Assembly: GCA_964364055.1 (NCBI GenBank)
Contig: CAYILT010000003.1
Coordinates: 1 to 45,008 of the forward strand
DNA length: 45,008 bases
Direction: 5' to 3'
Source of the DNA: an uncultured Nitrospiraceae bacterium
GTDB taxonomy: Bacteria; Nitrospirota; UBA9217
Positions 13,112 to 41,640 of this stretch are shown piece by piece. A program made the position numbers and the translations under genes. How positions within the stretch are numbered: position 1 is the stretch's first letter; every line of letters begins with the position of its first letter. Below the pieces are notes generated by a model. That model made no database searches. It was not told the origin of the DNA and saw nothing but the letters and a program-made list of their open reading frames with translations.

Positions 13112-13560
13112 TTAATGATACGCTGTGCCTGTTGTTGTTCTCTCCTCGTACTTCTTGCGTTCCTTCCCGTAGATCGCCTTGTTCCTGACGGCCGGGATCG
13201 AGAAATCGCCCTTTTCCCGCCACTTATCCTTCAGGTAATACCAGGGAGCAAAGTCTTCTATCTTCCATCCTTCTTTTATCTTTATCTCCGTTGTAACCCG
13301 CATATCTCTAATGAACAAAAACCTTTTTGTCTGCTATCATTGTGTGCTTGCCCTCACAAGGACCCCGAGACCCTGTCTCCGCCTCCTCCCGGGTTATGGT
13401 AAGCTGAGGAAACCCGGCTCCTTCATCTTTTGACATCGCAATGGCACGCGACGCAACCGCTTCCATCCTGATGCCTCTGCTCGTGGGCGGTGGTCACGCC
13501 GCTTGCCAGCAATACTGCAATGGTACCCAGCGCCGCCGCCCAATGTACTCGCTTTTCCAT
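13112..13560 (-). pseudogene. Internally deleted relic of a paralog of the multiheme cytochrome at 16078-17898
   Basis: 5' end: GGAG RBS, then MEKRVHWAAALGTIAVLLASG...CVACH and frameshifted KMKE-GFPQLTIT. 3' end: EGKHT..ADKK, then KEGWKIEDFAPWYYLKDKWR, matching the intact gene. Confidence 0.85.
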
Positions 13561-13681
13561 CCGCCGTTACTCCTTAGATTTATTTATGAAACGTTCATGC
13601 CTCAACGAGGCACAACGAAGCATGAAAATGCCTTCACCCTCCCCCCGCTTCTTTCCCGTCCGTTTTTTCCCCGCTGTTTGC

Positions 13682-14047
13682 TCAGCGGGCCAGTTGTTTT
13701 TTCACGGCAAGCAGCAAATCTATGGGCTCGCAGGGCTTGGTCAGGTATTCATCGGCGCCCTGCTTCTCGCCCCAGGCCTTATCGCTCGGTTGGTCCTTTG
13801 AGGTAAAGATGATTACCGGGATACTTCTTAATTTCTCGTCTTTTTTAATATCCCTGCAGAGCTGAAACCCGTTCTTCTTCGGCATAATCACATCGAGGAT
13901 GATCAGATCGAACGGCTCGGTCCTGATCATCTTCTCGGCCTCTTCCCCATCCATCGCAACGAAAAGGTCGTGCCCCGTGTCGGCCAGCACGGACTTTATG
14001 TACTGAATGTCCGTAAGGCTGTCCTCGGCAATGAGAATCCTCGCCAT
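13682..14047 (-). CDS. Single-domain response regulator (PilH/CheY-like)
   Basis: ILIAEDS, LIILDVIMPKKNGFQLCR, GADEYLTKP. Confidence 0.93.
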   Translation of the reverse strand: MARILIAEDSLTDIQYIKSVLADTGHDLFVAMDGEEAEKMIRTEPFDLIILDVIMPKKNGFQLCRDIKKDEKLRSIPVIIFTSKDQPSDKAWGEKQGADEYLTKPCEPIDLLLAVKKQLAR

Positions 14048-14067
14048 ACCAACCTCCTCCCGAGCCG

Positions 14068-14955
14068 TTATTTTTTCTTCGTGATGATGTCCATTGCCTT
14101 TGCAAGGCTCACTTTCATCCGCGTGAACGCGTCCGCGAGGGTCTTGATCTCGTCGTTGGTCTTTACCGCGAACTCCCGCTCGAACTTCCCGCGGCTTATT
14201 TCGTTCGCCGCCTCCACAAACCGCTCAATGGGCTTGATGATGCTGGCGATAATGAGCCGGTCGATGACGATTATGACCACAAAGAAAAATCCACTGTAGA
14301 TCAGGGAAAACAGCGCGAGGGCCTTTCGTGCATTCTGGATCGGGACATCAGCAGGGACATAGACGGAGGCAACAGTCAGAATCTCGCCCACCTTCCAGCC
14401 ATAACCATGGGTTGTCCCATATTTCTCCGTCACCTCGGGAGGCGCAAATGCAGGGTCACCGTGGCATCTGAGACAGTCAGGTTTTATCTCTACAGGCCTC
14501 ATGACCACATAGAAGCTGCCTGCGCCTGTCTGTTTATAACCCCTCCATTCCTTCGTCAGTCTGCCCGACCGGAACCCTTCTATCTTCTCCTTTTCAAAAT
14601 CATCCGCCATATATTCGAGGTTAAGGGGATTGAGGGTCGCCTCCTTGAAGGAATAATTCGGAAGCTTTTCTCTGATTCTCTTCTCTATATTCTTTGCTAC
14701 AAAGGTAGCGGACATGGCCTCGACGATGAACTTCTTCGGGAGCTCCTTCGTCACCGTAGGTCTGAGGACCTCGCCGGTATATTTCCTCGCCCCCTCCATC
14801 GCGGCCAGCATGAGGTTCGACTCTTCGAGTATTTCCCTCACCGCGTTCTGCTTGAGAATGTAATAGCTCCCCACAATCATGATGGGAAGGGAAACAACGT
14901 ACACCACCAGCATGATGACGGTAAACCGTTTCCTCAGCTTCATGTTCTTCAGCAT
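14068..14955 (-). CDS. Membrane sensor: DUF3365/Tll0287-like c-heme domain plus terminal HAMP, no output domain
   Basis: Two TM helices, FKEATLNPLN, one CLRCH motif, GYGWKVGE. Ends DEIKTLADAFTRMKVSL...stop. Confidence 0.85.
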   Translation of the reverse strand: MLKNMKLRKRFTVIMLVVYVVSLPIMIVGSYYILKQNAVREILEESNLMLAAMEGARKYTGEVLRPTVTKELPKKFIVEAMSATFVAKNIEKRIREKLPNYSFKEATLNPLNLEYMADDFEKEKIEGFRSGRLTKEWRGYKQTGAGSFYVVMRPVEIKPDCLRCHGDPAFAPPEVTEKYGTTHGYGWKVGEILTVASVYVPADVPIQNARKALALFSLIYSGFFFVVIIVIDRLIIASIIKPIERFVEAANEISRGKFEREFAVKTNDEIKTLADAFTRMKVSLAKAMDIITKKK

Positions 14956-15015
14956 ATCCTGTCACCTCCACCCATTCTATTGACTGTGCATGCCGGAGAG
15001 TTCGTCTTTCTCCGC

Positions 15016-15555
15016 CTATCCCTTTCGGTGTTTTGCGACGAAGGAGGCCTGGTGCTGGTCGGGCAATTCCTTTGCGAACAAGTCCACCAGACGCGAGTAA
15101 TCCCCGAACGGCATGGGGTTGCCGCGGCTGTACGACAGCCCGGCGAAGACGGTATCCGAGATCATTTTCCCGATCGGTCCGATCAGCTCGATGAATTCCT
15201 CTTCCACGGCCTTGACCGTCTGGGGCTGGACGGCGACGCCCGGCCGCGACGGCGCCGGTTCTGCGACCGCCTCCGAACCGGCCGTTCCGATAATCGCTAT
15301 GATCTTCTCCGTCAGGGGCGCCTGCGCCGGCGTCGTGGGTTTCATGCCCGGCAGAAAGGAATGCTCGACGGGAACGACGCCGTCCAGTTTTCTCAGGCAT
15401 TCCTCGTTTTTGCATGCGCCGAGGTTCAGGGAAACGATTTCTCCGCCGTCGAAGCATATCTTCAGGAGGTGGCTTTCACCCTCTATTTTTATCGCAAGAA
15501 GCCCGGTATCCTTTGACCGCAGATACTTTCCTATGAGAGGCGATAACGGATTCAC
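15016..15555 (-). CDS. DUF4388/PATAN-like protein
   Basis: KDTGLLAIKI...KICFDGGEIV N-terminal pattern and ELIGPIGKMI C-terminal region; paralog of 19194-19769. Confidence 0.6.
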   Translation of the reverse strand: MNPLSPLIGKYLRSKDTGLLAIKIEGESHLLKICFDGGEIVSLNLGACKNEECLRKLDGVVPVEHSFLPGMKPTTPAQAPLTEKIIAIIGTAGSEAVAEPAPSRPGVAVQPQTVKAVEEEFIELIGPIGKMISDTVFAGLSYSRGNPMPFGDYSRLVDLFAKELPDQHQASFVAKHRKG

Positions 15556-15703
15556 GAGGGCGCTCCTTTCCGCTTTTGCCGCAAAGGACGAACGGATCGC
15601 AACGGTATCCGTTTTAAATCCAAGGCATTCTTGGCGTTCCCAGCGACTTCGCGGCGTTCCAATAATTCCTATTATATATTATTCATACGCCTATTGCAAT
15701 GGA

Positions 15704-15985
15704 TCATAACGGCATATCATACTGGCTCTGGCTTCCGCAGGTTGTTTCCTTCGGCAACCCGTCGGTTGTAGCGCCGAGTCTCTGTACGCCGTGGTCGCAG
15801 AAACTCATCGTGACTCCCTGCAACGTGCAGAGTCCGGAATAAAAGGGTTGTTCAAGCAATTTTGTTCCCTCATCCATGGTGAAGATCGCTGCTTCGTGGC
15901 CCTTGGAAAAAGCGGCATTGGTGAGTCCGAGAACGTCATCGAGGCGCTTATTGGTATTGACCGGTATTCCTAATTTTATTTTCAT
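15704..15985 (-). pseudogene. DsrE-family protein with a degenerate C-terminus
   Basis: KLGIPVNT...SKGHEAAIFTMDEG...SFCDH...CGSQ. An AGCCAG duplication and an apparent frameshift at YD(N)AVM cut off the end. Paralog of 27783-28084. Confidence 0.65.
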
Positions 15986-16077
15986 CCTCCTGAAAATTAT
16001 ACATCAACCTTCGCGCCGATTATGGTTCCGATTTCATTGGTGGTATACGGGTTAATGCCGATTTTTCGGGTTCCGAA

Positions 16078-17898
16078 TTATCTCAGCAACTTCTTCACGC
16101 TCTCGGTATGATAGAATCCGTCCGCTTTGAGGGTATTCTCATATCTGCTGCGCTCTTTTCCATAGAGGGTCTTTTTCTTGTTCGCCGGGATGGAGAAATC
16201 GCCTTTCACCCGCCACTTATCCTTCAGGTAATACCACGGAGCAAAGTCCTCGATCTTCCAGCCCTCCTTAGGCTTTATCTCCGTCTTGGCCTGCATGTCT
16301 TTTATGAACAGCCCCTTTTTATCGGCTATCACGGTATGTTTTCCCTCAAAGGGCTCGGCGCCTTGATCGTTATACTTCCACGAAACCTCCTGGCGCTGCA
16401 CCCCGTCCTTGGTGTGGCAGCTCTCGCAGCTCCTCGATTTCCCGTACTTGTGGGACATCTTGTCCATCTGTATCCACGCAAGGGCATTGTCGTTTCCGGG
16501 CAATCCGCTGAGAAGCCCGACAAAGGCATATGCATCATCCGTTCTCTCAATGTCCGGAAGATTCGCAGGGTATCTCCAGGCAAGGCCCGGTTTCAGCCCG
16601 CCGTCCGTCTTCTGGTTCATGACGGCCATTGCATAGGGCTTCACCGGTATCCATCTCCCTTTTTGGTCTTTGATTAGAATGGGCTCCTTCATGACACCGT
16701 AGTATTCCTTATATTTTTTGAACGGCGTGGCGGCTCCGGCCACTTTTCCCGGCCCCCAGAAGGTGCCGGCATAGCCGCCCACATCCTGTATGTGACATGC
16801 CTCGCAGGTCACTTTTTTGTGTATAGACGTTGCCGTGGATTTAACCGCGTTATCATGGCATCGTGAGCAGCTCGCCTGTCTCTTTACCTGTCCGTGGAGA
16901 AGCGTTTTGTCCCTTGCAGGGGTGTCATGGCACTCGGTACAGGAAAGCCCCTTTGCATTGTGAACATCGGGGGCCGCGCCTTTCGGATTTGCGTAGTCAC
17001 CGCCTATATAGCCGCCGCCGCGCCTTCTGTCCTCGGGCCCTGCATGGCAGAGAGAGCCCCTCCCGCCGCCGTAACAGGTCTGGGGCGATATATTTTTTGT
17101 AAATGTGTGAGAACCTATGGCGGGATCATTCGGATCTTTCTTCTTAGGACTGTAATGGCAGTCGAGGCATCCGGCGTGGCAGGTATTACACGCCTTTTGA
17201 TTGATCGATGCCATTTCCCTCGTGAACGGGACCTTGGCGTCCTTTGCGATCTCTTCATGCCCGTCAACAAACCACGCACCACAGTTATGGGGACCCTTTT
17301 TTTTGTCGGTCCAGGTCTTGTACTGGCTTTGCTTTGCGTTGTGCCCCATTGCGGTCTTCCTGAATTCATCAACCTGTTTCGGGTGGCATGTTCCGCAGGT
17401 CTTCTCCTGAACAGCATAGTTGAAGGAAAGGGTCTCGGGGTCCTTGTCGTGGTAGAGGATGGTGTTCACCTCCGGATCTTTGACGAGTTTGCCGTCCTTT
17501 TCGACCATGGGGAGAAGCTCGACCACGGGGTTCTTTCCCCTCGGCTCCAGGGATTCCGGTTTGTAGTTTTCGAGCTTGTCCCTCGTTACGGCCTGAAAGC
17601 CCTTTGCCTTCACATAATAAAGCCTGAGCAATCCTTTATGCGCGCCTTCCTTTGTTGCGTCTGAAGAATTACCGAGATGACAGTCAGTGCACGAGGCGGG
17701 CATCTTTGTCTGTTTTTCCACTTCCTGCTGAGTTACGGAAAGCCGTGGAAATCCCATCTCCTTCATTTTTACCGCATCGCCGTGGCACGCAAGACAACTG
17801 CTGACCTCCTGAGGCTTCTGCTGAGCAATGGTTCCGTCGGCGGCGATGAGCAACGCGATACTGCCGAATGCAAGCGCGAGCATTCCCTTTCTCTTCAT
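16078..17898 (-). CDS. Exported multiheme cytochrome c (9 CxxCH plus one CX8CH)
   Basis: GGAGG RBS and signal peptide MKRKGMLALAFGSIALLIAA. Motifs CLACH, CTDCH, CGTCH, CNTCH, CLDCH, CTECH, CSRCH, CEACH, CESCH, plus CYGGGRGSLCH. Confidence 0.92.
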   Translation of the reverse strand: MKRKGMLALAFGSIALLIAADGTIAQQKPQEVSSCLACHGDAVKMKEMGFPRLSVTQQEVEKQTKMPASCTDCHLGNSSDATKEGAHKGLLRLYYVKAKGFQAVTRDKLENYKPESLEPRGKNPVVELLPMVEKDGKLVKDPEVNTILYHDKDPETLSFNYAVQEKTCGTCHPKQVDEFRKTAMGHNAKQSQYKTWTDKKKGPHNCGAWFVDGHEEIAKDAKVPFTREMASINQKACNTCHAGCLDCHYSPKKKDPNDPAIGSHTFTKNISPQTCYGGGRGSLCHAGPEDRRRGGGYIGGDYANPKGAAPDVHNAKGLSCTECHDTPARDKTLLHGQVKRQASCSRCHDNAVKSTATSIHKKVTCEACHIQDVGGYAGTFWGPGKVAGAATPFKKYKEYYGVMKEPILIKDQKGRWIPVKPYAMAVMNQKTDGGLKPGLAWRYPANLPDIERTDDAYAFVGLLSGLPGNDNALAWIQMDKMSHKYGKSRSCESCHTKDGVQRQEVSWKYNDQGAEPFEGKHTVIADKKGLFIKDMQAKTEIKPKEGWKIEDFAPWYYLKDKWRVKGDFSIPANKKKTLYGKERSRYENTLKADGFYHTESVKKLLR

Positions 17899-18043
17899 CT
17901 TTTTTTGCCTCCTTATCGGTTGATGAGAGCGTCCGTGTCCGGCTCGTCTCTCTCTCTCTGCACCCATCTTGGTCATCGGCGTCATGATTCCCCCTGAAAC
18001 AGATAGCTCCATTGAAACAAATACGCGCGGGCGGAGCATTCGC

Positions 18044-19171
18044 CTACTCCAGGAGTTTCTTCATGCTGACCCGCATCCGGTCGAGGGACTTGGCGAGGGT
18101 CTCCAGCTCGTCGTTCGACTTGATCTCTATCTTATCGGCCAGCTTGCCCATGGATACGGCATCGGCCGCGTTCGTCAACGCGATCACCGGGTTGATGACG
18201 CTCTTCCTCAGACTGAGGTTGATCACCACGGATATCAGCAGCAGAATTGACGTATAGACCGCGATGTTGATTATCAGCGTTCTTCTGATCTTGGCCAGGA
18301 CCGCGGTCCGGTCCATAAGAATACCGAGAAACCCGACTTCCTTGCCGGAGTAGTCGGTGAGCGGCGAGATGGCGATATAATACTCTTTGCCGCCGGCGGC
18401 AGCATGGTCTATATACGCGGCGCGTCCCGCGGCCTTCGCCGCCGCCAGCGTTTCAGGCCGTATGATCCCCTGTGTCAGGGCGGGGTTGGTGGAATAGAAG
18501 GGTGCGTAATTCCCGATGAGCTTCACGTTCTTCTGCCACTCCTGCCATACCTGAGTCGCGGCTTCCTTAGTGATAAGCGCTACCACCTCGGCGTTGAACA
18601 CCTTCTTTGCGTCCTCAAGGGCCGGCGCCAGGTCGCCTCCGAACTCCACGGACCCCACATGCTTTCCCTTCGAGAAGACCGGCTCCACCCCCCGGAGCCC
18701 GATGCCGGCGCGTCCGATCTCGATCCCTCGCACTCCCACCCGCTTCTCGTTCACGGAGAGGACCATAAACCTGAATGAGGACAGGTCGTCTCCATACTTT
18801 TCCGGTTGATGCACCCGTAAAAACGACGTGGCGGGCGGCTTGTGGAACTGAAACTGGGCAAGCCCGAATTTTTTCTTCAGAATTTCAAATCCCGGAAGAA
18901 ACTCGGAAACGAGCTTTTTCCGATCACCTTTGCCGAAGGCGTCGGCCGCGGCAGGCATGCCGGCGACGAGGGTCGCCATTTGCTGATAGAGGTCCATGCG
19001 GGCGTCCAGGATGCCGTGAGCGGTGTTGAGAACGCCTTTGAGCGTTTCCTCCGCTTCGTCGTGGACGAGCGAGACCTGTGAGAAGTAATTGAATCCGGCC
19101 AGGCCGCTCATGACAACCACCAGAATGACTATCACCGGAAGAATCGTTTTGGATTTCAGGCCTCGCTTCAT
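18044..19171 (-). CDS. Membrane sensor: Cache (dCache_3-like) domain plus terminal HAMP, no output domain
   Basis: Two TM helices, FQFHKPPATSFLRVHQPEKYGDDLSSFR, GIEIGRAGIGLRGV. Ends DELETLAKSLDRMRVSMKKLLE-stop. Confidence 0.85.
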   Translation of the reverse strand: MKRGLKSKTILPVIVILVVVMSGLAGFNYFSQVSLVHDEAEETLKGVLNTAHGILDARMDLYQQMATLVAGMPAAADAFGKGDRKKLVSEFLPGFEILKKKFGLAQFQFHKPPATSFLRVHQPEKYGDDLSSFRFMVLSVNEKRVGVRGIEIGRAGIGLRGVEPVFSKGKHVGSVEFGGDLAPALEDAKKVFNAEVVALITKEAATQVWQEWQKNVKLIGNYAPFYSTNPALTQGIIRPETLAAAKAAGRAAYIDHAAAGGKEYYIAISPLTDYSGKEVGFLGILMDRTAVLAKIRRTLIINIAVYTSILLLISVVINLSLRKSVINPVIALTNAADAVSMGKLADKIEIKSNDELETLAKSLDRMRVSMKKLLE

Positions 19172-19193
19172 ACTGTTTTCCCTCCTTTGTTAA

Positions 19194-19769
19194 CTATGAA
19201 ATGATCCTGGCTGCCTCTTTGAGGAATTCGTTACGATCGTCGGGATTCTCTATTTCGTCTTTCAGGATATCGGTGAGGCGGATGAGGTCTTCCCTTGTGG
19301 CCGGTGACGAGGCGCGCCACTTCTGTTCGATGGTCCGCGAGAACACCTTGGCGCCTGCGGGGCCGATCTGCCTGACCAGCGCCAGTTTGATATTTTCCTG
19401 CGCCGCCGCGGAAACGCCGGCAATCTGCGCGCCGGAAGGCCGGCTGCCGCCCGTGCCCGAATGGGCAGGCACCTCCACGGCCCTGTCGGCCGCCCTGAAG
19501 AACTGGATGATGTCCGCCAGTGGAGGGAGGTTCCCGTCCTGGACGTTCAGCAACACCTCAGGCATGAAAAAGTACTGTGAAAATTCCTGTCCAACCGCCT
19601 GGGCCAGGCACTCCTTTCCTTTCACGCTGCCGCAGGTGACGTGATAGAGCTGTCCTTCACGGAAGAACAGCTTCAACTGCGTATTGGCGCCTTTCACGGC
19701 AATGGAAAGAAGTCCGCTTTTTCCGCTCCGATTGATCTCCGCAATGAATTCTGACAGCCCGGTTTTCAT
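19194..19769 (-). CDS. DUF4388/PATAN-like protein
   Basis: GKSGLLSIAV...KLFFREGQLYH and LVRQIGPAG; paralog of 15016-15555. Confidence 0.6.
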   Translation of the reverse strand: MKTGLSEFIAEINRSGKSGLLSIAVKGANTQLKLFFREGQLYHVTCGSVKGKECLAQAVGQEFSQYFFMPEVLLNVQDGNLPPLADIIQFFRAADRAVEVPAHSGTGGSRPSGAQIAGVSAAAQENIKLALVRQIGPAGAKVFSRTIEQKWRASSPATREDLIRLTDILKDEIENPDDRNEFLKEAARIIS

Positions 19770-19843
19770 AGTATTTTATTCTCCCTGCGGACCGGTGTTC
19801 GAAAGCACGATGCAGGTTCTATAACCTGCGGCATTCCTTCGCG

Positions 19844-20212
19844 TTACTTCTGTTTAACGTGCTTTTTGACGGCGATCAGCAGATCGAGGGGTGTGAAGGG
19901 TTTCGTGATGTATTCGGTGGCGCCCTGTTTGAGCCCCCAGGCCTTATCGCTTTCCTGATTCTTTGAGCTTATCATGATGATGGGGAGGCCCTTGAGCTTT
20001 TCATCCGCCCTCAGGTCCCGGCATACCTGAAACCCATTTTTTTTCGGCATGATGACGTCCAGAATCACCAGATCCACCGACTCCGTCCTCGCCTTGTGCT
20101 CGGCTTCCTCGCCATCTACAGCCATAATGACCTCATGGCTAGCCTCTTTCAGGATGTCTTTTATCATGTGAAGTTCGGTAGCGCTGTCTTCTGCCACGAG
20201 TATTTTTGCCAT
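19844..20212 (-). CDS. Single-domain response regulator (PilH/CheY-like)
   Basis: ILVAEDS, LVILDVIMPKKNGFQVCR, GATEYITKP; close paralog of 13682-14047. Confidence 0.93.
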   Translation of the reverse strand: MAKILVAEDSATELHMIKDILKEASHEVIMAVDGEEAEHKARTESVDLVILDVIMPKKNGFQVCRDLRADEKLKGLPIIMISSKNQESDKAWGLKQGATEYITKPFTPLDLLIAVKKHVKQK

Positions 20213-20284
20213 TACGTTCTCCTCCACGCACGGTTCTTTGTTCAGGTAAAGCGCCTGCCCCTGGGAGCGGGTTTATTCTCATCG

Positions 20285-21720
20285 TTATGTCTTCCGTTGG
20301 AAGAGGTCCTGCCTCACCCACACCCAGCACAGGCTTCTAAAGCCGGTGAACGAGGCCCTGATGTCAGGAAGACTCCTGATGCCCAGGACCCTCCGGACGA
20401 GAAAGCGCGGCCGCGAGTAGAATTTCTTGAACGCCATCTGGCGGAGCTGCGTTATCTCGTCCCGTTTCATCGAATAAGGGATGAATGCCGCGCCCTGGTA
20501 GGTATAAGTCGGCAAAGTCCCTGGACCTGGTGCCGTACTGCTCGATATTGTCGTAGAGCTCGGTGCCGGGAAAAGGCGTCGGACAGTGGAAATTGGCTAC
20601 ATCGGGATCGAGTTCACAGGCAAACCTGATGGTCTCCAATCCCTCCTCGAAGGTCTCTCCGGGGATGCCGAAGAGGAAGGGCGTGAACACCGTCAGCCCC
20701 ACATCCTTTGCAGCGCGGACGGCCCTGCGCGTCTGATCCAGCGTGATGCCCTTGCGAATGGCGTTCAGGTTCTTCTGCACGCCGCTCTCGGCGCCGAAGA
20801 GGATGGCCCAGCAGCCCCGCGTCCTTGAACGCTTGAAGCAGGGGCTTGTCCACCTGGTGGACGCGGGCCGAAGCGAACCACGTAATGTCGAGCTTGCGCG
20901 CCTTGATCTCACGGGCGATCCGCATGGCGCGGCCGTAATCAGCGGCAAGGGTGTCGTCAATGAACTTGATCTCGCGGTAGCCCTGGCTCAGGCAATGCTC
21001 GATCTCCTCCATGACGCTCCCGACGCTCCGGTAGCGGATGCCGCTTTTCCGTTCCTTGTCGATCTGGAAACAGCAGAGGCCTTTCCGGTTGCACCCCCGC
21101 GAGGTGATGATGACGGCCACGGATTTTCTCTTATACGTTGCGGGCGGCGGGATATAGCTGTCCGTATCACCCAGAAGCTCCCGCGCCGGGAAGGGCAGGG
21201 CGTCGAGATCCGTGTTCAAGGGACGGTCAGGATTGGCAAGGATGTTCGTTCCCTCGCGGTAGAGCACACCTTTGACGCCGGCCAGGCCCGCGCCCGCGGA
21301 GAGCTGCTCCACCATCTCGGCAACGGTCGCCTCTCCTTCTCCGGTTACGACGGCATCGATGCATGACGCATCCTGCAGACAGTGTTGCTTCGTGGCAATG
21401 GGATAGGGGCCGCCCACGGCAAGGAAGACGTGGGAGAGGAGCAGCTTGATGTCCGATGCGGTAAGACGGGCCTTGGCCCATCCGAAGGCGGTGGAATAAA
21501 TGCCGACAAAGCCGGGATTCCAGACGGAGAGGGCATTCAGGATCTCCGCGTGGGACAGGAAGGCGCCGTTCAGGAACTTCACCGTATGCCCCGCCTGTAT
21601 CAGCGATGAGGCGACATACAACGTGCCGAGGGGCTGCCAGTAGTTGATCTGGGCGGCCGCGGTCTTGGTGGGAAAAATGTCTTCCGGCGTCCAGGAGGGT
21701 ATGATGAGAGCGCATTTCAT
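20285..21720 (-). pseudogene. B12-binding radical SAM protein with two frameshifts
   Basis: One gene split over three frames (WQPLGTLYVA...; ILFGAESGVQ...GIPGET; TYQGAAFIPY). Breaks near 20820 and 20510. The cluster motif reads SRGCNRKGLCC, with the second Cys missing. Confidence 0.85.
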
Positions 21721-24474: not shown

Positions 24475-25911
24475 TTAAAGATCGAACGCGGCCATCTCCT
24501 TGGCCATCTTTCGCTCGGTCCACCAGTTGAAGAACTTGACCCCGATATAGGCGCCGCCGATCATCCCGATGCCGAACAGCCAGCCCGACGCATCGCCCAG
24601 GGCAACGCGGGCGAAGAAGGCCCCCACATTGCACCCGAGGCCGAGGCGGGACCCGATCCCCATCAGGAGGCCGCCGATGATCGCCCAGACCGCGAGTTCT
24701 TTTGTGGGCTTCTTGAACTTGAACTCATTGCTGAGCAGCGCCATCACCGCTGCGCCGCCGATAAGTGCAAGCGACATCCAGTCGGCCGGGTTTACGGCGG
24801 GATTGGGTATGCCGTTGTTCAGTCCGAAATAGATATTGTCCATATTGTTCCAGCCGAGCTTGTTGAACACCCAGCCGACCCACTGGGCCTCCTGGGTGGT
24901 GACGTACCAGTAGCCGGGGTCGAAGACCGTGCCGTTCACCGACAAACCGAAATCGTGCCCCAGTCTCGAGAGGAGCGTTCCCGCGTTCCTGACCCCGAAT
25001 TTGATCCGCAGCCCTTCGATCACGAGCATCTGGAGCCCGCAGGCAATGCCCAGAAAGAGGCCAGCGAGGGCCGTTCGTTTCGACGACGCTATCATGCCCC
25101 AGTAACCGGCAAGCTCGTCCCGGAATGTTGCGCTTTTCCCGGCCTGAGTGACCTTTTTTAAATAGTTTTTTCTGACCCAGAAACCATAGACGACCACGAG
25201 CAGCAACGTTGCCGGGAGCACGACGCCGACCAGAAAGTCGCCGATAAATGCGCCCGCAAACGACGCGTCCTTGAATCCGAGCAGCTCGGAGAACTTCACT
25301 ATCGGCTGGTTCCATAAGTAGCCGGCGAGATACTGGTCGACCCATCCGTCGCCGGCGTTGATGGCCGCGGGCAGTTTTTTTGCCAGGGCCGACTCGTGCC
25401 AGGACTGGGGCACGAGTTTGTTGAACCAACCCCCGAGGTCCACGAATGTTGCCTGGGTAACGCTGATCGACAGCACCACGAGCAGGGAGACCCCGTTGCC
25501 CTCGCCGGTCTTGTACAGGGAGCCCGATGCGCAGCCGCCGGCGAAAACCATCCCGACGCCGAAGATGAGCCCCGCGATGGTCGCGGCGATGCTGGTCGGA
25601 GCGGCATGGAACGTGCTCATGCCCGTTGCGGTCACAAAGGCGGAAACGAAGCTGAACAGGACCGTGGCGATCATGATGCCGACGACCATGCGAGGGACTC
25701 CCACCGCAAAGAGGTCCCGGAACGCTGACGCGAAACAGAACCGTCCGTACTGCAGGCACATACCGTAGACAAAGCCGAACCATAAATAGGCCGAAATGTA
25801 GATGTAGTACTCATGGACAGCAAAACTGAAAACGCTGACCATGATCAGGAACCCGACGATGCCCAGCGCCCAGCGTTGGTTCTTTGTTTCCGTAATTGTC
25901 GCCTCGTTCAT
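24475..25911 (-). CDS. YeeE/YedE-family sulfur-compound (thiosulfate) transporter
   Basis: Three family cysteines: GRFCFAS, AGGCASG, GLGCNVG. Start placed at ATG 25911, after a GAGGTGG RBS and downstream of the sigma54 promoter. Confidence 0.9.
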   Translation of the reverse strand: MNEATITETKNQRWALGIVGFLIMVSVFSFAVHEYYIYISAYLWFGFVYGMCLQYGRFCFASAFRDLFAVGVPRMVVGIMIATVLFSFVSAFVTATGMSTFHAAPTSIAATIAGLIFGVGMVFAGGCASGSLYKTGEGNGVSLLVVLSISVTQATFVDLGGWFNKLVPQSWHESALAKKLPAAINAGDGWVDQYLAGYLWNQPIVKFSELLGFKDASFAGAFIGDFLVGVVLPATLLLVVVYGFWVRKNYLKKVTQAGKSATFRDELAGYWGMIASSKRTALAGLFLGIACGLQMLVIEGLRIKFGVRNAGTLLSRLGHDFGLSVNGTVFDPGYWYVTTQEAQWVGWVFNKLGWNNMDNIYFGLNNGIPNPAVNPADWMSLALIGGAAVMALLSNEFKFKKPTKELAVWAIIGGLLMGIGSRLGLGCNVGAFFARVALGDASGWLFGIGMIGGAYIGVKFFNWWTERKMAKEMAAFDL

Positions 25912-25990
25912 TTCCACCTCGTTACCTCCTGCCTGATGATTTCTTGTGTTCCCGTCCGGATACCCTTTGTTAGCGATGTACAACTCTAAT

Positions 25991-26006
25991 TGCAAGGATG
26001 TTGCCA
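25991..26006 (-). promoter_or_regulatory. sigma54 (-24/-12) promoter of the YeeE operon
   Basis: Minus strand reads TGGCAACATCCTTGCA. Confidence 0.8.
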
Positions 26007-26056
26007 TGTTCAATGGTTGAATAAATCAACGATTATTTGATCCAAGGAACAAGACC

Positions 26057-27782: not shown

Positions 27783-28084
27783 TCACAGGATGATGACCTT
27801 GTCCGCCTCCTGGAGCATCGTCGCATTGTCATACTGGCTGCCGCGCACGATCGCTTCGGGATCGCATCGAAGGGAACGCCAAGCCCCTGTGCGCTGTGCT
27901 CACAGAAGCTCATGACGATCTTCTGGCGCGCCGACAGCTCCTTTATCGATGGCTGGCTCAACAGGCGCGTTCCCGCGTCCATGATGAAAATGCTCACCTC
28001 GTGCCCTTTGGAAAGTGCGGCATTGGTGATCCCGAGCACAGCATCGGGGTGGTCGTCCGTATTGACGAGTATTCCCAGTTTCAT
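27783..28084 (-). pseudogene. DsrE-family protein with a -1 frameshift
   Basis: MKLGILVNTD...SKGHEVSIFIMDAG...SFCEHSA. The natural end PEAIVRGSQYDNATMLQEADKVIIL* lies in another frame. Span 302 nt (3n-1). Confidence 0.8.
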
Positions 28085-28778: not shown

Positions 28779-29006
28779 TCATTTTTGAATTGTGAAATAG
28801 AGCGTTCCGCCCTGTTCAGTCGTTTCGAGAAGGGTATATCCCCGATGCGAGCAGAGCGCCGGGATACTTTCCTTGGCGCCCGCGTCGTTCGTGATGACTG
28901 AGAGGATCTGGCCATGGTCGAGCTTGGCCATGGTCGTCTCGATCACGATCGCCGGCCGGGGCTGCACCAAACCTTTAATATCAAGGGTCTTATCCGCATT
29001 TACCAT
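28779..29006 (-). CDS. TusA-family protein lacking the CPxP cysteine
   Basis: ADKTLDIKGLVQPRP...GQILSVITND...YFTIQK. Confidence 0.8.
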   Translation of the reverse strand: MVNADKTLDIKGLVQPRPAIVIETTMAKLDHGQILSVITNDAGAKESIPALCSHRGYTLLETTEQGGTLYFTIQK

Positions 29007-29075
29007 GACCAAACCCTGCCCGTGCGCGGTCAACCTGTTCTGCCGATCCACCAGTAGCCTTTCAGTAGTAACTAT

Positions 29076-29242: not shown

Positions 29243-30895
29243 ATGCAACGGCTGCTCCTCCTCGTTCTGACCGCAGCATTCTTTTTCTGCTCCGCAGCAG
29301 CGGATGCTTCCCCGGAGAAAGCGAGGCTCTCTTCGCACCTGACGTCGGATGCCGCCACCCCTCTTGTATTCATCATATTGCCCGTCGAAAATACGCGCGT
29401 CGTATATGAGAAGTTCCTGCCACTCAAGGACTACCTTGAGAAAGCGATCTCCCGCACGATCATTCTCCGGATAGCCCGGGATTACCAGGAAGCAATCCAC
29501 GAAATCGGTACCGGCGAAGCCCAGCTTGCCTACCTCGATCCTTCAGCCTACTGCGAGGCGCGCTTTCTGCACCGGGTCGTCCCGCTGGTCAAAACGATAC
29601 GGAACGGATCTCCGACCTATCGCAGCGTGATCGTTGCGCGGAGCGATTCCGGGATCCGCAAGATCATTGAGGCCAAAGAAAAGCGGGTCGCCTTCGGCAA
29701 CAACAGCTCGTCCTCGTCCTATCTTATCCCTGCCGTCATGTTCAAGGAAGTCGGGATCAGCCTCTCGGCGTTCTCGGCCGTCGATTACCTCGAGCAGGAG
29801 GACCGGATCGCGCTCTCGGTCCTGGCAAAACGCCATGACATCGGCGGCATGAGCGAGCGCGTTGCGCGAAAGTACCTCGGTGACGGCCTGTCGATCATCA
29901 ATGTATCCGAACCGATCCCCCAGTATACGCTCAGCGCCGCCGCGGGACTGCCGGCGGCCCTTCAGAAGAGCATCCGCAGGGCATTGTTGTCCGTCGGAAA
30001 GGACCGCTATCCGGCCCTGATCGCGGCCATGAAGGACATTGACGGTTTCGCGCCGGTGGAAGACCGGGAGTTCGATGTCGTGCGGGTGATGATCAAGAAC
30101 CTCACGGGGAAGAACTACCTTTCCTATCCGAAGAACGTGATCAAGGTCGCCATTCTTCCGCTCTACTCGGCGATCACGCTCTTTGAACGGTTCGATCCGC
30201 TCATGCGGTATCTCACCGGGAAGACGGGCCGGGAGTTCAGGCTCGTGATCCCCAGGGACTTCGAGGCTTTTTTCGAGACCGTCGCGCGCGGCGAGGCGGA
30301 TTTTTCCTATTCCAATCCCTACATCTATATTCAGCTCGCCGACAAGGGCTATCTGACGGCCTTCGCCAATACGGTCATAGAGGCCTCCGGCGATATTTTC
30401 CGCGGCATCATCATCACGCACCGGGACAGCGCGATCAGGACCATCGAGGACCTCAAAGGCAAGCGCGTCATGGTCGTCTCGTATAAGTCGGCGGGCGGAT
30501 TTCTGGCGCAGAAATTGCTTTTGAACGAAAACCTGATCGATGTGTTCAAAGACCTCAAGCTTTCCGAGGGAAAGCGGCAGGAAGAGGTCATCCTGAACGT
30601 GTACCGCAAAAAGGTGGATGCCGGGTTCGTCCGGGAATCGGCGTTGGAGGTCCTGAAGGAGGAGATCGACCTGAGTGAGATCAGGACCATTGCCGCGACA
30701 CCCTATATCGCGAACTGGCCGTTCGCGGCGGGCAAGAGGACCAACGGGAAAATGGCCGAGCTGGTCAAGCAATATCTTCTGGACCTCACCGACCGTCGGG
30801 TCCTGACCGCGGCCGGGATCAAGGGATTCAAGGCCGCCGGCGACGGGGATTTTGACGCTCTGCGGAAACGGATACGGCAACATGAAAACCACTAG
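29243..30895 (+). CDS. Periplasmic binding protein with two PhnD-like (phosphonate-bd) domains
   Basis: Signal peptide and two homologous halves (FLPLKDYLEK...YRSVIVAR...SSSSYLIP and FDPLMRYLTG...FRGIIITH...SAGGFLAQ). Confidence 0.85.
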   Translation: MQRLLLLVLTAAFFFCSAAADASPEKARLSSHLTSDAATPLVFIILPVENTRVVYEKFLPLKDYLEKAISRTIILRIARDYQEAIHEIGTGEAQLAYLDPSAYCEARFLHRVVPLVKTIRNGSPTYRSVIVARSDSGIRKIIEAKEKRVAFGNNSSSSSYLIPAVMFKEVGISLSAFSAVDYLEQEDRIALSVLAKRHDIGGMSERVARKYLGDGLSIINVSEPIPQYTLSAAAGLPAALQKSIRRALLSVGKDRYPALIAAMKDIDGFAPVEDREFDVVRVMIKNLTGKNYLSYPKNVIKVAILPLYSAITLFERFDPLMRYLTGKTGREFRLVIPRDFEAFFETVARGEADFSYSNPYIYIQLADKGYLTAFANTVIEASGDIFRGIIITHRDSAIRTIEDLKGKRVMVVSYKSAGGFLAQKLLLNENLIDVFKDLKLSEGKRQEEVILNVYRKKVDAGFVRESALEVLKEEIDLSEIRTIAATPYIANWPFAAGKRTNGKMAELVKQYLLDLTDRRVLTAAGIKGFKAAGDGDFDALRKRIRQHENH

Positions 30896-32504
30896 GCTTA
30901 CGCTCGGGCTTAAGTTCTCGATGGCCGTGACGGCGCTTATCGGGTTCACCATGTTCGGCGTGGCGTCGCTGATCATCAACTTCCAGAAAGAGTCGCTGCG
31001 GCAGAACACAGCGGAGAGCAATCTCGACATGACGAGGAACCTCGCTCATGACGCGGCCGGCGCGCTGCTGGTGTTCGACCCGCTTCGGCTCGATGAGCTG
31101 GTAAACACGGTCCCCGGCGTTGCAGCCACGGCCTACGCCCTGATCGCCGACAGCGGCGGTGTGATCGCGGCGCATACGAAACGGTCCTCCCTCGGCTCAC
31201 TTCTGGGACCGCTGAATTATCCGGGACTCGCCGATGCTCTGGTGGATGGCAGGGAGCTGGCGAGAGAGTACCAGCACGAGAACATGCCGGTCAAAGAGTT
31301 CTCCGTTCCCATCAAGATCGGCAGCAAGGTGCTCGGACTTGCGACGATCGGCTATTCGTTGAACGCAATTGATGCCGCGATCGAAACCCGGATCAAGAAT
31401 CTCAGGGCGTACATCTATTTGATCACCGGGATCATGCTCCTCGGCGGCATTGCCGGCGCTTTCCTGGTCTCCAATTTCCTTACGAAACCTCTCCGGAGGC
31501 TGAAGGACAGGATGATCGATGTCCAGACCGGCAACCTCAACGTCGAGGTTGAAAATCCCCGCATCGTAAAGTGCTGGGAGCGGCTGGGTTGCGACAAGAA
31601 GGAATGCCCCTCATACGGAAAGGTGCGGTGCTGGGCGACCGCCGGGACCTTCTGCCATGGAGCGGTCCAGGGCGCCTTTGCGCAGAAGATCGGGGACTGC
31701 CGGAACTGCGTTGTGTATAAGGAATCCTGCGGTGACGAGATCCAGGAGCTCGTGGAAGTGTTCAACCAGATGGTGAAGGACCTTAAGCACAACCTGAAGG
31801 AACTGGAGAAGGTGAATACGGAAAAATCGAGGATGGAGCGGCTGTCCGCCCTGGGCGAGATGGCGACGACGGTCGCCCACGAGACAAGGAACCCGCTCAA
31901 CTCCATCCGCCTGGCGGCGTCCTACCTGAAAAAGAACTTCCAGGGCGAGATCCTGAGCGAGTTCCTCTCGATCATTGAAGAAGAGGTCATGCGGCTGAAC
32001 GAGATCACGTCCGACTTCCTCGGGTTCTCGAAGCCCGCTCCGCTCAGGATGAAAACGACCGATATCAACGCCATCGTGAAATCCACGGTGGAGCTTGTCC
32101 GGCAGGAGGCGACGGACAGGAACATCGAGGTCATCATCCTGACGGACGAGCACGTACCTCCGGTCCCGTGCGACTTTTCACGGATGAAACAGGCGATCCT
32201 GAACCTCTTGCTGAACGCCATCGATGCGTCGACCGCGGGCGACACCATTATCATCACCACCGAGGCCGCGGGCGCTTGGTTGAACCTGTCCGTCCAGGAT
32301 TCGGGGCGGGGGATCCCGCCGGAAGACCTTGAAAATATCTTCAAACCCTTCTATACTACCAAAACACGCGGATCGGGCCTCGGCCTCGCCATCGTCGACC
32401 GCATCGTGAAGGAACACAAGGGAGAGATCGCCGTGGAGAGCGCTGTGGGTAAAGGGACAAAACTTACCATAATGCTTCCGGCATACGAACATGCAGGAAT
32501 ATAA
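30882..32504 (+). CDS. Sensor histidine kinase with a Cys-rich (two-CW-like) insert in HAMP
   Basis: Two TM helices; H-box AHETRNPLNSI, N-box LLNAIDA, DSGRGI, FYTTK, GSGLGL. Confidence 0.93.
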   Translation: MKTTRLTLGLKFSMAVTALIGFTMFGVASLIINFQKESLRQNTAESNLDMTRNLAHDAAGALLVFDPLRLDELVNTVPGVAATAYALIADSGGVIAAHTKRSSLGSLLGPLNYPGLADALVDGRELAREYQHENMPVKEFSVPIKIGSKVLGLATIGYSLNAIDAAIETRIKNLRAYIYLITGIMLLGGIAGAFLVSNFLTKPLRRLKDRMIDVQTGNLNVEVENPRIVKCWERLGCDKKECPSYGKVRCWATAGTFCHGAVQGAFAQKIGDCRNCVVYKESCGDEIQELVEVFNQMVKDLKHNLKELEKVNTEKSRMERLSALGEMATTVAHETRNPLNSIRLAASYLKKNFQGEILSEFLSIIEEEVMRLNEITSDFLGFSKPAPLRMKTTDINAIVKSTVELVRQEATDRNIEVIILTDEHVPPVPCDFSRMKQAILNLLLNAIDASTAGDTIIITTEAAGAWLNLSVQDSGRGIPPEDLENIFKPFYTTKTRGSGLGLAIVDRIVKEHKGEIAVESAVGKGTKLTIMLPAYEHAGI

Positions 32505-33843
32505 TATTCTCGTCGTGGATGACGAAAAGAACATCCTGAAGATCGTTTCAGCCACTTTGAAAAAAGAAGGCTACGGGGTCGAGACCGCCCAGTCCTCGGA
32601 GGAGGCGATCGAAAAGTTCGGGCGGGGCGATTACCATCTCGTCATCACGGACCTGAAGCTGCCGGGCAAGACGGGGATCGAGCTGCTGGGATATATCAAA
32701 TCCAGGGATGCCGATGTCCCGGTCGTCGTCGTCACGGCGTTCGGCTCCATTGAAAACGCCGTCGAAGCGATGAAAAAGGGCGCCTTCAACTACCTGACCA
32801 AGCCCGTCAATGCCGACGAACTGCTCTCCGTCGTCAAAGAGGCCCTGGAAAAGTACGAGCTGAAGCGGGAGAACATCGCCCTCAAGTCGGAGCTGAAGGA
32901 GAAATACACCTTCAGCAACATCATCGGGAAGTGCGCTCTCATGCAGGAGGTCTTTCATACCATCAGCATGGTCGCCAGGACCCAGTCGAACATCCTTGTC
33001 GCCGGCGAGAGCGGCACGGGCAAGGAACTGGTCGCCCGGGCCGTTCACTACGGCTCCGATCGGGCAGGCGGACCGTTCGTCACCATCGACTGCGCGGCCA
33101 TTCCCGCGGAGATCATGGAGAGCGAGCTCTTCGGCCACGAGAAGGGCTCGTTCACCGGGGCCCATGAAAAGAAGCTGGGACTCCTGGAGCGCGCGAACGG
33201 CGGCACGGTCTTCCTCGACGAGATCGGCGAGCTCGACCTGAACCTCCAGAAGAAATTGCTCCGCTTCCTTCAGGAACGGGAGATCCTGCGGGTGGGCGGG
33301 AGCGGCAGGATCAAGCTCAACGTGCGCATTGTGGCCGCGACGAACAAGGACCTGGAGCAGGAGGTCGGGGCGAAGCAGTTCCGCGAGGACCTGTTCTACC
33401 GGCTGAACGTCGTGACGATCAAGATGCCTCCCCTGCGGGAGCGCAAGGACGACATCCCTCTCCTGGCCCAGCATTTTCTCGAGAAGATGAACCGGATCGA
33501 AGGAAAACACATCCAGGGAATCGATGATGCCGTGGTGAACGCGTTCCTCCGCTATGAGTGGCCGGGAAACGTGCGGGAACTGGAGAACACCATCGAGCGG
33601 GCGTATATTCTTTGCCCCACGGTCACGATCGGCCAGAAATACCTGCCGGCGAAGCTCGCGCTCCCGGCGCAGGACGAGCGGGGAGTGTTCGACCAGATGA
33701 ACCTGATCGAGACGGAAAAACGGCTGATCGTCAAGGCGCTGAACCAGACATCCTGGAACCAGAGCAAGGCCGCCGAGGTCCTGGGGATCACCCGGAAGCA
33801 GCTCAGGACGAAGATGAAGAACCTGGAACTGCTGCCCGAGTGA
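32491..33843 (+). CDS. sigma54-dependent response regulator (NtrC/Fis family)
   Basis: REC domain, GESGTGKE, ESELFGHEKGSFTGA, FLDEIGE, WPGNVREL, Fis-type HTH. Confidence 0.96.
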   Translation: MQEYNILVVDDEKNILKIVSATLKKEGYGVETAQSSEEAIEKFGRGDYHLVITDLKLPGKTGIELLGYIKSRDADVPVVVVTAFGSIENAVEAMKKGAFNYLTKPVNADELLSVVKEALEKYELKRENIALKSELKEKYTFSNIIGKCALMQEVFHTISMVARTQSNILVAGESGTGKELVARAVHYGSDRAGGPFVTIDCAAIPAEIMESELFGHEKGSFTGAHEKKLGLLERANGGTVFLDEIGELDLNLQKKLLRFLQEREILRVGGSGRIKLNVRIVAATNKDLEQEVGAKQFREDLFYRLNVVTIKMPPLRERKDDIPLLAQHFLEKMNRIEGKHIQGIDDAVVNAFLRYEWPGNVRELENTIERAYILCPTVTIGQKYLPAKLALPAQDERGVFDQMNLIETEKRLIVKALNQTSWNQSKAAEVLGITRKQLRTKMKNLELLPE

Positions 33844-39584: not shown

Positions 39585-40187
39585 CTATTCCATGGCCAGC
39601 TTCAGCCGCTTCGCGGGATCGTCGAACCGGATCTTTTGGGGATCAAAGTGTTCCGGATCGAATTCGCCTCCGGCCCAGTTCAGCATTTCTTCATACTGTT
39701 TATGGGCGGGGTCCATGATGATCTCCAGAAACTCCTTATACCCGTGCGGCCCGCCGCAGTCTTCGGGCGGGCATGCGCGTTCGCCGGCCACGCAGACCGG
39801 ATAGGAGACGCCCTCCGCCCTCGGTTCTATTTTCTCAAGAACGACCTCGTGCCTCCAGTCATCGCCGAAATCGTACCGGTACTTCGCCCTGGTCCGGTCG
39901 GCCGTGAAGTAATCCCTGATTTTTATCTTCCAGCCGGGGAGAATTTCCGGCTCATCATCGAAATAATCGTCCAAGGGAAGGCCGATATGCTCCTTTTCGC
40001 CTGTCGAGGGATCAATTATTTCAAATTCATGAAGATGACAATCCATCCACCGCATGCTGTCCTGTATCGCAACGTGCAGATCCCAGAATGAGTAGACTTC
40101 AGGAACCTGTATCCGCCGCCAGACTGGAGGCTTGATCCCTTTAAGCGTGATCTTAAACTGATATACCCGGTCATATTTTTTCTTCAT
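39585..40187 (-). CDS. Plasmid pRiA4b ORF-3 family protein
   Basis: YQFKITLKGIKPPVWRRI, LHVAIQ, HLHEF, YRYDFGDDWRH, ACPPEDCGG. Confidence 0.92.
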   Translation of the reverse strand: MKKKYDRVYQFKITLKGIKPPVWRRIQVPEVYSFWDLHVAIQDSMRWMDCHLHEFEIIDPSTGEKEHIGLPLDDYFDDEPEILPGWKIKIRDYFTADRTRAKYRYDFGDDWRHEVVLEKIEPRAEGVSYPVCVAGERACPPEDCGGPHGYKEFLEIIMDPAHKQYEEMLNWAGGEFDPEHFDPQKIRFDDPAKRLKLAME

Positions 40188-40191
40188 CCAA

Positions 40192-40557
40192 TCACTCCCA
40201 GGGCATTTCGTCCCAGTGCTGGAACTGCTGGACCGCTTCTTCCGCTATGCTGTAACCGGCGCCCTTGCGACTGGCCCGGCCGAAGCCCACCCCGGCGGCC
40301 TTGAACAGCGCTTCCGTTTCACCGATAAGCGGGTGCAGCCCGGAATCGTCCTCGCATTCGCAGGCCTGCTCGAAGATCAGGACCTGTTTCTTAGCCTTGG
40401 CGTCCTTCTTTTCCTTTTCGCGCGCGATTTCAAAGGCAACTTGCAGCATTCCTCCGGCGACAACGGACAGCCGATGCGTCCGCCCTCCCGGCACAAGCCG
40501 CTTCAGCATGTCCGTCCAGACGGAATATATTTTTACTCCCACGACACTCTTGATCAT
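40192..40557 (-). CDS. Hypothetical protein
   Basis: Co-oriented ORF ending 4 nt before the pRiA4b ORF-3 gene. Confidence 0.7.
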   Translation of the reverse strand: MIKSVVGVKIYSVWTDMLKRLVPGGRTHRLSVVAGGMLQVAFEIAREKEKKDAKAKKQVLIFEQACECEDDSGLHPLIGETEALFKAAGVGFGRASRKGAGYSIAEEAVQQFQHWDEMPWE

Positions 40558-40627
40558 TCCTTCGCCCCCGATCATCTCGGCTCATACACTCCTTGTTCGA
40601 CGGACGCCTTCCTTTTTACCAAGCTCT

Positions 40628-41002: not shown

Positions 41003-41008
41003 AACACA

Positions 41009-41141: not shown

Positions 41142-41161
41142 CACATGGTCATCGCTTTCGA

Positions 41162-41614: not shown

Positions 41615-41640
41615 ATTATCTCCTTTATCGCATCGCTCCG

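Follow-up and report, generated by a model that had tools for sequence, protein, structure and literature searches.

HAMP-terminated receptors and their putative DUF8082-bearing partner proteins in Nitrospirota, with a proposed link to a CheA-type pathway

What can a membrane receptor signal to when its polypeptide ends at the HAMP domain? The question is raised by two neighbouring gene modules in a 45,008-nucleotide stretch (hereafter the window, meaning the whole of that stretch) of contig CAYILT010000003.1 from an uncultured Nitrospiraceae bacterium, whose source assembly (GCA_964364055.1) is a Nitrospirota metagenome-assembled genome of 445 contigs and 89% completeness. To our knowledge, HAMP has long been thought to pass signals only inside one polypeptide. 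One exception is described in the available text of two 2026 preprints, where a heme-Cache-HAMP receptor is clamped by a Ser/Thr kinase (10.64898/2026.05.25.727664, 10.64898/2026.02.01.703092).

Each module encodes a HAMP-terminated sensor, a lone receiver (REC1 or REC2) and a small two-domain protein, here termed PAT (PAT1 or PAT2), which has a PATAN-like N-domain and a DUF8082 C-domain. The upstream module (module 2) consists of REC2, PAT2, a dCache_3-HAMP sensor (CacheHAMP) and a cytochrome, and module 1 of PAT1, a Tll0287-like (heme-Cache)-HAMP sensor (TllHAMP), REC1 and a cytochrome relic (Table 1). An earlier reading of the window from its letters only (the sequence-only reading) had described four components present twice. 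The copies do lie on the minus strand and are paralogous, with 61% identity between REC1 and REC2 (E 3e-58), 30% between PAT1 and PAT2 (BLASTP E 3e-13) and 31% between the second transmembrane segment plus HAMP of the two sensors (E 7e-13). We propose, at a probability of roughly 0.6, that in each module a DUF8082 adaptor with a PATAN-like effector clamps an output-less receptor, and that the CheY-like receiver beside them belongs to a Tax/Pix-like pathway whose kinase would be supplied in trans.

Anatomy and conservation of the sensor-PAT pair

Both sensors carry two hydrophobic segments around the sensor domain (residues 9-35 and 210-244 in TllHAMP, 3-33 and about 295-327 in CacheHAMP). TllHAMP has a single CxxCH motif, CLRCH at residue 161; CacheHAMP lacks CxxCH, and its input domain is dCache_3 instead of heme-Cache. 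The Pfam HAMP match ends at residue 284 of 295 in TllHAMP and at residue 369 of 375 in CacheHAMP, leaving in the latter a tail of 6 residues (conserved ...RMRVSMKKLLE). Searches with Pfam and NCBIfam found no kinase, methyl-accepting chemotaxis protein (MCP) or cyclase domain in either sensor. All 52 homologous sensors collected here stop 0-7 residues past the HAMP profile and have conserved tails, and the CacheHAMP orthologues in the sensor alignment, half of whose rows were displayed, end at the same residue. Given that all 52 homologues end this close to HAMP with conserved tails, the sensors are not truncations; termination at HAMP is genuine, as had been claimed, and the truncated-sensor reading was rejected. 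The inputs recognised by Pfam among the homologues were Tll0287-like, dCache_3, sCache_3_3 and Mcp40H-20_sensor, or none, in line with the earlier suggestion of swappable inputs.

At E 1e-8, the PAT family profile matched 76 of the 401 genomes sampled from the phylum, and by our reading of the table the match spanned both domains in 52 genomes. PAT-positive genomes made up 44/63 of family f1, 13/14 of f16, 9/35 of f11 and 3/3 of f15, and the profile at this threshold found no PAT in families f9 (0/76), f10 (0/28) and f17 (0/40). Gene neighbourhoods were compared for 55 PAT genes, comprising the 2 in the window and 53 places elsewhere (13 and 40 from separate searches); six genomes with full-length PAT matches (G136, G323, G092, G115, G339 and G319) were left out. 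A HAMP-terminated sensor was encoded on the same strand at 52 of the 55 PAT genes and was the next gene at 50. The gap between PAT and sensor had a median of 16.5 bp, was 30 bp or less in 35/52 pairs and zero or below in 10/52, and the order was PAT then sensor in 44 pairs and sensor then PAT in 8. Such short gene spacing suggests that PAT and sensor are co-translated. The conserved core is the pair of PAT and HAMP-terminated sensor. The tight linkage of these two genes, one of the earlier claims, was borne out; a wide co-occurrence of all four genes was not, and the pair alone recurs widely.

Purifying selection acts on every gene of the modules: dN/dS values lie at 0.09-0.37, compared with 0.25 for NuoN (TllHAMP 0.09, REC2 0.11 against genome G005, CacheHAMP 0.17 and PAT1 0.37). 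The possibility that the modules are decaying, non-functional leftovers of a chemosensory operon would fit the lack of genes for CheW, CheA and a receiver-PATAN fusion (REC-PATAN) beside both modules, and the presence in the region of a cytochrome relic and a truncated DsrE-like open reading frame (ORF). It is nonetheless a very improbable explanation, since the six signalling genes are intact, their dN/dS values were obtained against orthologues in other genera, and the pair has been retained at 28 places within the window's family.

Variants of the pair's surroundings were also seen among relatives. In G003, of the same genus (locus L025, contig C68), genes for a 129-residue REC, CheW and an MCP are inserted between the orthologues of PAT2 and the dCache_3-HAMP sensor. 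In G005 (L024, 9423-9812), an extra REC gene only is found at the PAT2-sensor junction, which measures 22 bp in the window. In four further genomes (G018, G014, G001 and G004; L029, L030, L032 and L033), the pair, here with the sensor gene first, is flanked by the same two genes (a conserved one of ~280-300 codons and a large one of ~815-880 codons), with neither REC nor cytochrome nearby; the labels htpX-like and lon-like for these flanking genes are guesses from terminal residues only.

The PAT proteins and the proposed HAMP dock

PAT2 comprises a PATAN-like region (residues 1-95), a disordered linker (99-118) and a four-helix DUF8082 domain (119-190), and its AlphaFold2 (AF2) model (mean pLDDT, the predicted local distance difference test, 80.6) likewise has an alpha/beta N-domain, a disordered linker and a four-helix C-domain. 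No transmembrane segment was found in PAT2, and Pfam detected no kinase domain in PAT1 or PAT2. PAT has no receiver domain; PATAN and REC in one polypeptide, the PatA-type arrangement, was not encountered in the modules, where REC1 and REC2 are separate genes. PF26309 (DUF8082) was precomputed for all 35 matches of the PAT search, including the window's own protein (PAT2), and 68-84% of the members of the Atlas clusters carry DUF8082. PAT1 was assigned to DUF8082 through the family profile, which it matches at E 1e-57, and its orthologue in G012 is 89% identical. A literature search under the name DUF8082 found no paper. ORFs of ~105 codons that encode a PATAN-like domain without DUF8082 recur across the window's family and in many relatives, with two in the window's genome (C201:1273-1587 and C362:1564-1905).

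When compared with 1.84 billion proteins, the PAT profile matched a Ser/Thr kinase, P0146, that has four DUF8082-like repeats (E 5.8e-11), and alignment of PAT with the C-terminal repeats of the Burkholderiales kinase by hhalign gave a probability of 93.6% (E 2e-7). Twenty P0146 loci were fetched; eight of them (L121-L128, all Burkholderiales) included the kinase repeats and the upstream flank, and L130 was cut at a contig edge. In 8/8 of these loci, a HAMP-terminated sensor lay directly upstream of the repeat-bearing kinase, and Pfam, applied to seven of the eight sensors, recognised a Tll0287-like domain in 7/7 and HAMP in 6. The remaining loci (L129 and L131-L140) were kinase-domain matches only, with neither the repeats nor a HAMP-terminated heme sensor. 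TllHAMP is itself 31% identical, over its full length, to a HAMP-terminated sensor from Methylibium that adjoins a DUF8082 kinase. No longer proteins with the PAT C-domain were found in a word-index search, which is weak evidence. At E 1e-6, the PAT profile matched 0/401 sampled genomes of the phylum of G401, a null result that is uninformative because G401, which has the DUF8082 kinase, was also unmatched. DUF8082-like repeats additionally occur behind a Ser/Thr kinase-PilM-like fusion (1000 residues) and a REC-DUF4388 regulator (440 residues; P0125 and P0139), which hint at a pilus link and at fused REC, PATAN and DUF8082 forms.

According to the available text of the preprint, the Cache_heme-HAMP (CHH) receptor of Pseudomonas azotoformans and its Ser/Thr kinase bind with nanomolar affinity through two C-terminal helical bundles, electron cryomicroscopy (cryo-EM) at 3.47 Å places IGP helices under HAMP AS-1 of each subunit, and nitric oxide (NO) raises phosphorylation of a HAMP threonine by the kinase (10.64898/2026.05.25.727664). 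The heme-Cache family and its NO binding are established in the corresponding text of the companion preprint (10.64898/2026.02.01.703092). Aligned with this solved kinase complex, the invariant G-P of PAT proteins falls on the IGP helix, which places the equivalent helix at residue 135 in PAT2 and residue 125 in PAT1. On these profile comparisons, the PAT C-domain is homologous to the HAMP-binding kinase repeats. TllHAMP is by its predicted features a CHH-type receptor, having a heme-Cache domain with CxxCH, two transmembrane segments, a terminal HAMP and an adjacent partner with an IGP helix. PAT would then bind HAMP, and the earlier proposal that a HAMP tail docks PAT gains support from homology to a module for which docking on HAMP was seen by cryo-EM.

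Prediction of a complex of two HAMP copies with PAT2, an approach that had been recommended at the outset, gave a score of 0.56 against 0.00 for the best of three controls, which favours an interface although the score falls in the weak band. At least 66% of contacts were shared between runs, with a partner pLDDT of at least 73. The score mark was reached by 58/80 solved complexes and 2/110 mismatched pairs; those that reached it with a score of 0.60 or below were 7 of the 80 solved complexes and both passing mismatches.

Receivers, CheA-REC operons and competing explanations

Both receivers match Response_reg (E about 1e-24) and keep all phospho-acceptor residues; in REC2 these are the acidic pair, the phospho-acceptor Asp in ILDVIMP, the Ser in ISSK and the Lys in TKP. 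In the receiver tree, REC1 groups within the CheY-like RECs encoded by CheA operons of the Tll type (L075, L076, L078, L080 and L082), and REC2 falls in the REC-PAT-dCache group of the window's family, sister or next to the operon RECs. REC1 and REC2 are CheY-like and belong to the same clade as the PAT-associated operon RECs. Given that they occupy separate subclades of this tree, each with orthologues from other families, the two modules represent old paralogous subtypes, and a recent duplication was rejected.

Of the 55 places, 21 have the pair at the head of an operon that by Pfam also encodes REC-PATAN (a REC-DUF4388 protein of ~420 residues), a REC of 121 residues, CheW and a CheA of ~750 residues with Hpt, dimerisation, HATPase, CheW and C-terminal REC domains. 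This CheW/CheA operon was found at 21/27 places outside the window's family. A convergent MCP gene follows CheA in 15/21 of the operons, and 6/21 have no MCP within the stretch fetched. The gene set matches that of the cyanobacterial Tax1/Pix system. In the window region, the Tax/Pix-like set of CheA-REC, CheW and a PATAN-bearing regulator was not found. Contig C107 of the window's genome encodes REC-PATAN, REC, CheW, MCP, CheA-REC, two further CheW and a REC protein, and the genome holds three more CheA genes. The description of the system as kinase-less is accurate for the modules themselves, in neither of which a kinase was found (the nearest histidine kinase, 30852-32504 (+), is ~10 kb away in a separate operon), and does not extend to the wider system, given the CheW and CheA-REC genes at those 21/27 places and the C107 operon in the same genome.

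These data bear on the self-contained relay envisaged in the sequence-only reading, in which PAT and a lone REC, as a split PatA, would be docked by the HAMP tail independently of any kinase, and the cytochrome would inform the sensor of periplasmic redox state. Its attractions are the lack of a kinase in either module, the lone REC beside the pair in 12/34 places without CheA, and a cytochrome gene positioned after that of the dCache_3 sensor in the same orientation, both being under purifying selection. By contrast, REC1 and REC2 keep their phospho-acceptor residues and belong to a CheY-like clade encoded with CheA-REC, and 22/34 places without CheA have no such REC. The cytochrome, whose likely start is at 17901, begins with a hydrophobic signal-like segment and belongs to generic c7/c3 clusters in the Atlas. 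Among the 55 places, cytochromes or their remnants are confined to the window's genus, G012 and G013: an intact orthologue is present only in G005, and fragments are found in G012 (where a remnant similar to the relic follows REC1; L034) and G013. One of the two copies in the window is itself a relic, consisting of a 45-residue ORF, signal plus CVACH, that ends in a stop, and of C-terminal pieces 68% identical to cytochrome residues 574-644 (tblastn E 7e-26). The cytochrome is a lineage-specific neighbour outside the conserved system and not the component that had been supposed, and a kinase-independent relay of this kind appears improbable.

Two other explanations turn on the MCP genes. The sensors might act as co-receptors that modulate a nearby MCP or kinase through transmembrane or HAMP hetero-oligomers, PAT not being their direct partner. 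The convergent MCP in 15/21 full operons would suit such an arrangement, as would the insertion of REC, CheW and MCP between PAT2 and the sensor in G003. Against this, direct binding to this kind of HAMP is known for a module homologous to the PAT C-domain, the pair persists without a nearby MCP in most places in the window's family, and gene spacing suggests co-translation of PAT with the sensor; we regard co-receptor action as quite unlikely. Alternatively, PAT could serve as a scaffold, taking the place of the MCP tip by recruiting CheW and CheA-REC to an MCP-less receptor, with no output to pili or regulators. The position of PAT and sensor ahead of REC-PATAN, REC, CheW and CheA-REC in the operons, and the 6/21 operons lacking an MCP within the stretch fetched, are as this explanation would predict. 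It is nevertheless unlikely, because an MCP does adjoin CheA in 15/21, the pair in the window's family stands without CheW or CheA (0/28), and a fold search with the AF2 model revealed no MCP-hairpin likeness in PAT.

The proposal of a clamped receptor with its kinase in trans can be set out as follows. TllHAMP would sense through a predicted covalent-heme sCache domain (Tll0287-like), probably for NO or redox, and CacheHAMP through dCache_3 for some ligand. The DUF8082 bundle of PAT would dock on HAMP, probably with one PAT per HAMP subunit, mirroring the two bundles of the kinase. Ligand binding at the sensor would alter the action of the N-terminal PATAN-like domain, the presumed output, which by analogy with PixE and PixG most likely binds a type IV pilus motor part or REC/REC-PATAN regulators. 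REC1 and REC2 would be phosphorylated by CheA-REC encoded in trans. The modules would then be front ends of a Tax/Pix-like pathway (REC-PATAN, CheY, CheW and CheA-REC) encoded in the same operon in other Nitrospirota families and elsewhere in the genome in the window's family, as at C107 here. A broader and more tentative version, to which we give somewhat less than even odds, holds that DUF8082 is a portable HAMP dock for interchangeable inputs (heme-Cache, dCache_3 and sCache) and unrelated effectors (in Proteobacteria a Ser/Thr kinase, in Nitrospirota a PATAN-like domain acting in polarity or motility), that receptor-PAT is a second, MCP-independent input to the Tax/Pix-like CheA-REC pathway, and that the lone REC acts in trans on PAT as a split PatA.

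Several observations weigh against the main proposal of a clamped receptor with its kinase in trans. The assignment of the PAT N-domain to PATAN is soft: PAT2 matches Pfam DUF4388 (PF14332) at 19.5 bits (E 0.001), below the 25-bit gathering cut-off, and PAT1 has no Pfam match, with no PATAN even at E 10, so that the earlier label 'DUF4388-like' holds weakly for PAT2 and goes undetected in PAT1. Alignment of PAT with the PATAN domain of the operon REC-PATAN regulators by hhalign reached a probability of 63% (E 7e-5) over 47 columns of N-terminal strands; one PAT homologue, P0026, does carry a precomputed PF14332. A Foldseek search of the PDB with the PAT2 model gave no match at E 0.001 or better, and a wide VIA-align search returned nothing beyond generic four-helix bundles (Z 6.7 or less), aligned in every case to the C-domain, with the N-domain barely covered. 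The stoichiometry of PAT to HAMP is a guess, because PAT has one bundle and the kinase two or more, and the passing score of the HAMP-PAT2 prediction may reflect likeness to the solved complex. With regard to the pathway, three places (L077, L079 and L101) have a full CheA operon and PAT without a HAMP-terminated sensor, and in the window's family CheA, CheW or REC-PATAN adjoins the pair in 0/28 places. In five relatives of this family, three of them from the window's genus, CheA is solely of the kind seen on C107, and the best is 38-39% identical to the operon type. Given that no CheA is adjacent and that identity is at this level, the CheA link in this organism depends solely on the homology of REC1 and REC2.

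Neighbouring genes and relation to known systems

The region 13112-20227 consists of eight minus-strand genes and one relic (Table 1), flanked on one side by the nuo operon and a CBS gene and on the other by a frameshifted B12/radical-SAM gene. In this last gene (20364-21720 (-)), which encodes a B12-binding/radical-SAM protein, there is an apparent frameshift near 20900-20960; a 368-codon ORF departs from the frame kept by the G012 orthologue, and the remainder lies in a second ORF (20364-20960). The frameshift could be an assembly error or mark a pseudogene.

Table 1. Genes and relic of the two modules, with positions in the window.
Feature	Position	Strand	Description
REC2	19844-20227 (ATG at 20212 gives 122 residues)	-	Single-domain CheY-like receiver; Pfam Response_reg E 6e-25
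PAT2	19194-19769	-	191 residues; putative cytoplasmic adaptor, PATAN-like N-domain and DUF8082 C-domain
CacheHAMP	18044-19171	-	375 residues; periplasmic dCache_3 (Pfam E 5e-35), cytoplasmic HAMP at residues 321-369
Multiheme c-type cytochrome	16078-17901 (ORF open to 18039)	-	607 residues; 9 CxxCH, Pfam Cytochrome_C7
DsrE-like ORF, truncated	15704-15985	-	93 residues; between the two modules
PAT1	15016-15555	-	179 residues; PAT2 paralogue with the same two-domain layout
TllHAMP	14068-14955	-	295 residues; Tll0287-like (PF11845, E 1.9e-35), HAMP at residues 235-284
REC1	13682-14047	-	Single-domain CheY-like receiver (Pfam)
Cytochrome relic	13112-13560	-	45-residue ORF and out-of-frame C-terminal pieces of a paralogue of the cytochrome above; middle deleted

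The truncated DsrE-like fragment, which G012 retains upstream of PAT1, has a 53%-identical paralogue at 27833-28084 (-), near genes for TusA (28779-29051) and sulphur transport (24475-26013). An operon for a phosphonate-binding protein (PBP), an sCache-HAMP histidine kinase and an NtrC-type regulator occupies 29243-33843 (+) of the window and lies within a few kb of either module in G005, G003 and G012 (L024, L025 and L034); this proximity probably reflects shared synteny and not a functional link. At the end of the window, 39585-45003 contains a PRiA4_ORF3-like gene and a large N6/N4 DNA methylase gene at a lower G+C content (0.52-0.54) and may be a mobile or defence island.

We know of no inputs to PATAN-type regulators outside cyanobacteria. 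The locus suggests that the clamp of the heme-Cache-HAMP receptor is reused with a different, PATAN-like effector and with non-heme sensors, and in several Nitrospirota families the clamp appears to feed a chemotaxis-like pathway. If so, a single curiosity would become a modular signalling principle, DUF8082 would gain a testable function, and NO, redox or small-molecule cues would have a route to PATAN-type regulators. HAMP-terminated heme-Cache receptors and DUF8082-type docking are already known from the preprints in the text available (10.64898/2026.05.25.727664, 10.64898/2026.02.01.703092). As far as that text extends, the PATAN-like partner, the dCache_3 and other inputs and the operon link to a CheA-REC pathway are apparently new; the terms PATAN, PatA, CheA, DUF4388 and Nitrospir do not occur in the main text of preprint 10.64898/2026.05.25.727664, its supplementary neighbourhood figure lying outside this scope.

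The closest known system is the CHH-kinase pair, with which the modules share an output-less, HAMP-ended receptor, a heme-Cache input (in TllHAMP) and a neighbour-encoded partner with an IGP helix and DUF8082. They differ in that the N-domain of the partner is PATAN-like here, not a PknB-like kinase, and is followed by a single bundle, compared with two or more in the CHH kinase; the second receptor uses dCache_3 and not heme-Cache, and the genomic link is to a CheA-type pathway, whereas in the portion of the source available it is to a PP2C phosphatase. In Geobacter, GSU0582 and GSU0935 are heme-Cache MCPs, named in both preprints (10.64898/2026.05.25.727664, 10.64898/2026.02.01.703092), that similarly feed a periplasmic c-heme Cache sensor into a chemosensory pathway, but their HAMP is described there as running on into an MCP signalling domain of the same polypeptide.

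In the Tax1/Pix system, as presented in the accessible parts of the sources, output lies with the PATAN domain, which binds the type IV pilus motor (PMC11181946; bioRxiv 10.1101/2021.06.11.447907), and the set comprises PixG (PATAN-REC), PixH (REC), PixI (CheW), PixJ (MCP) and PixL (CheA-REC) (PMC11181946). The related Nitrospirota operons likewise encode a PATAN-fused receiver, a lone CheY-like REC, CheW, CheA-REC and often an MCP, and PATAN is again presumed to be the output. On the same account, the order of the fusion differs (REC-PATAN here, PATAN-REC there), and an extra pair of PAT and HAMP-terminated sensor heads the Nitrospirota operon, of which the window has this pair and a CheY-like REC only. 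A sensor in complex with a PATAN-type regulator has a precedent in Synechocystis, where, in the part of the source available, the BLUF sensor PixD forms complexes with the PATAN regulator PixE beside a Che-like system (PMC11181946). The complex proposed here is a predicted one; PixD is described as a soluble photoreceptor and PixE as carrying a REC, whereas the candidate partners in the window are a membrane HAMP receptor and a PAT protein that would dock through DUF8082.

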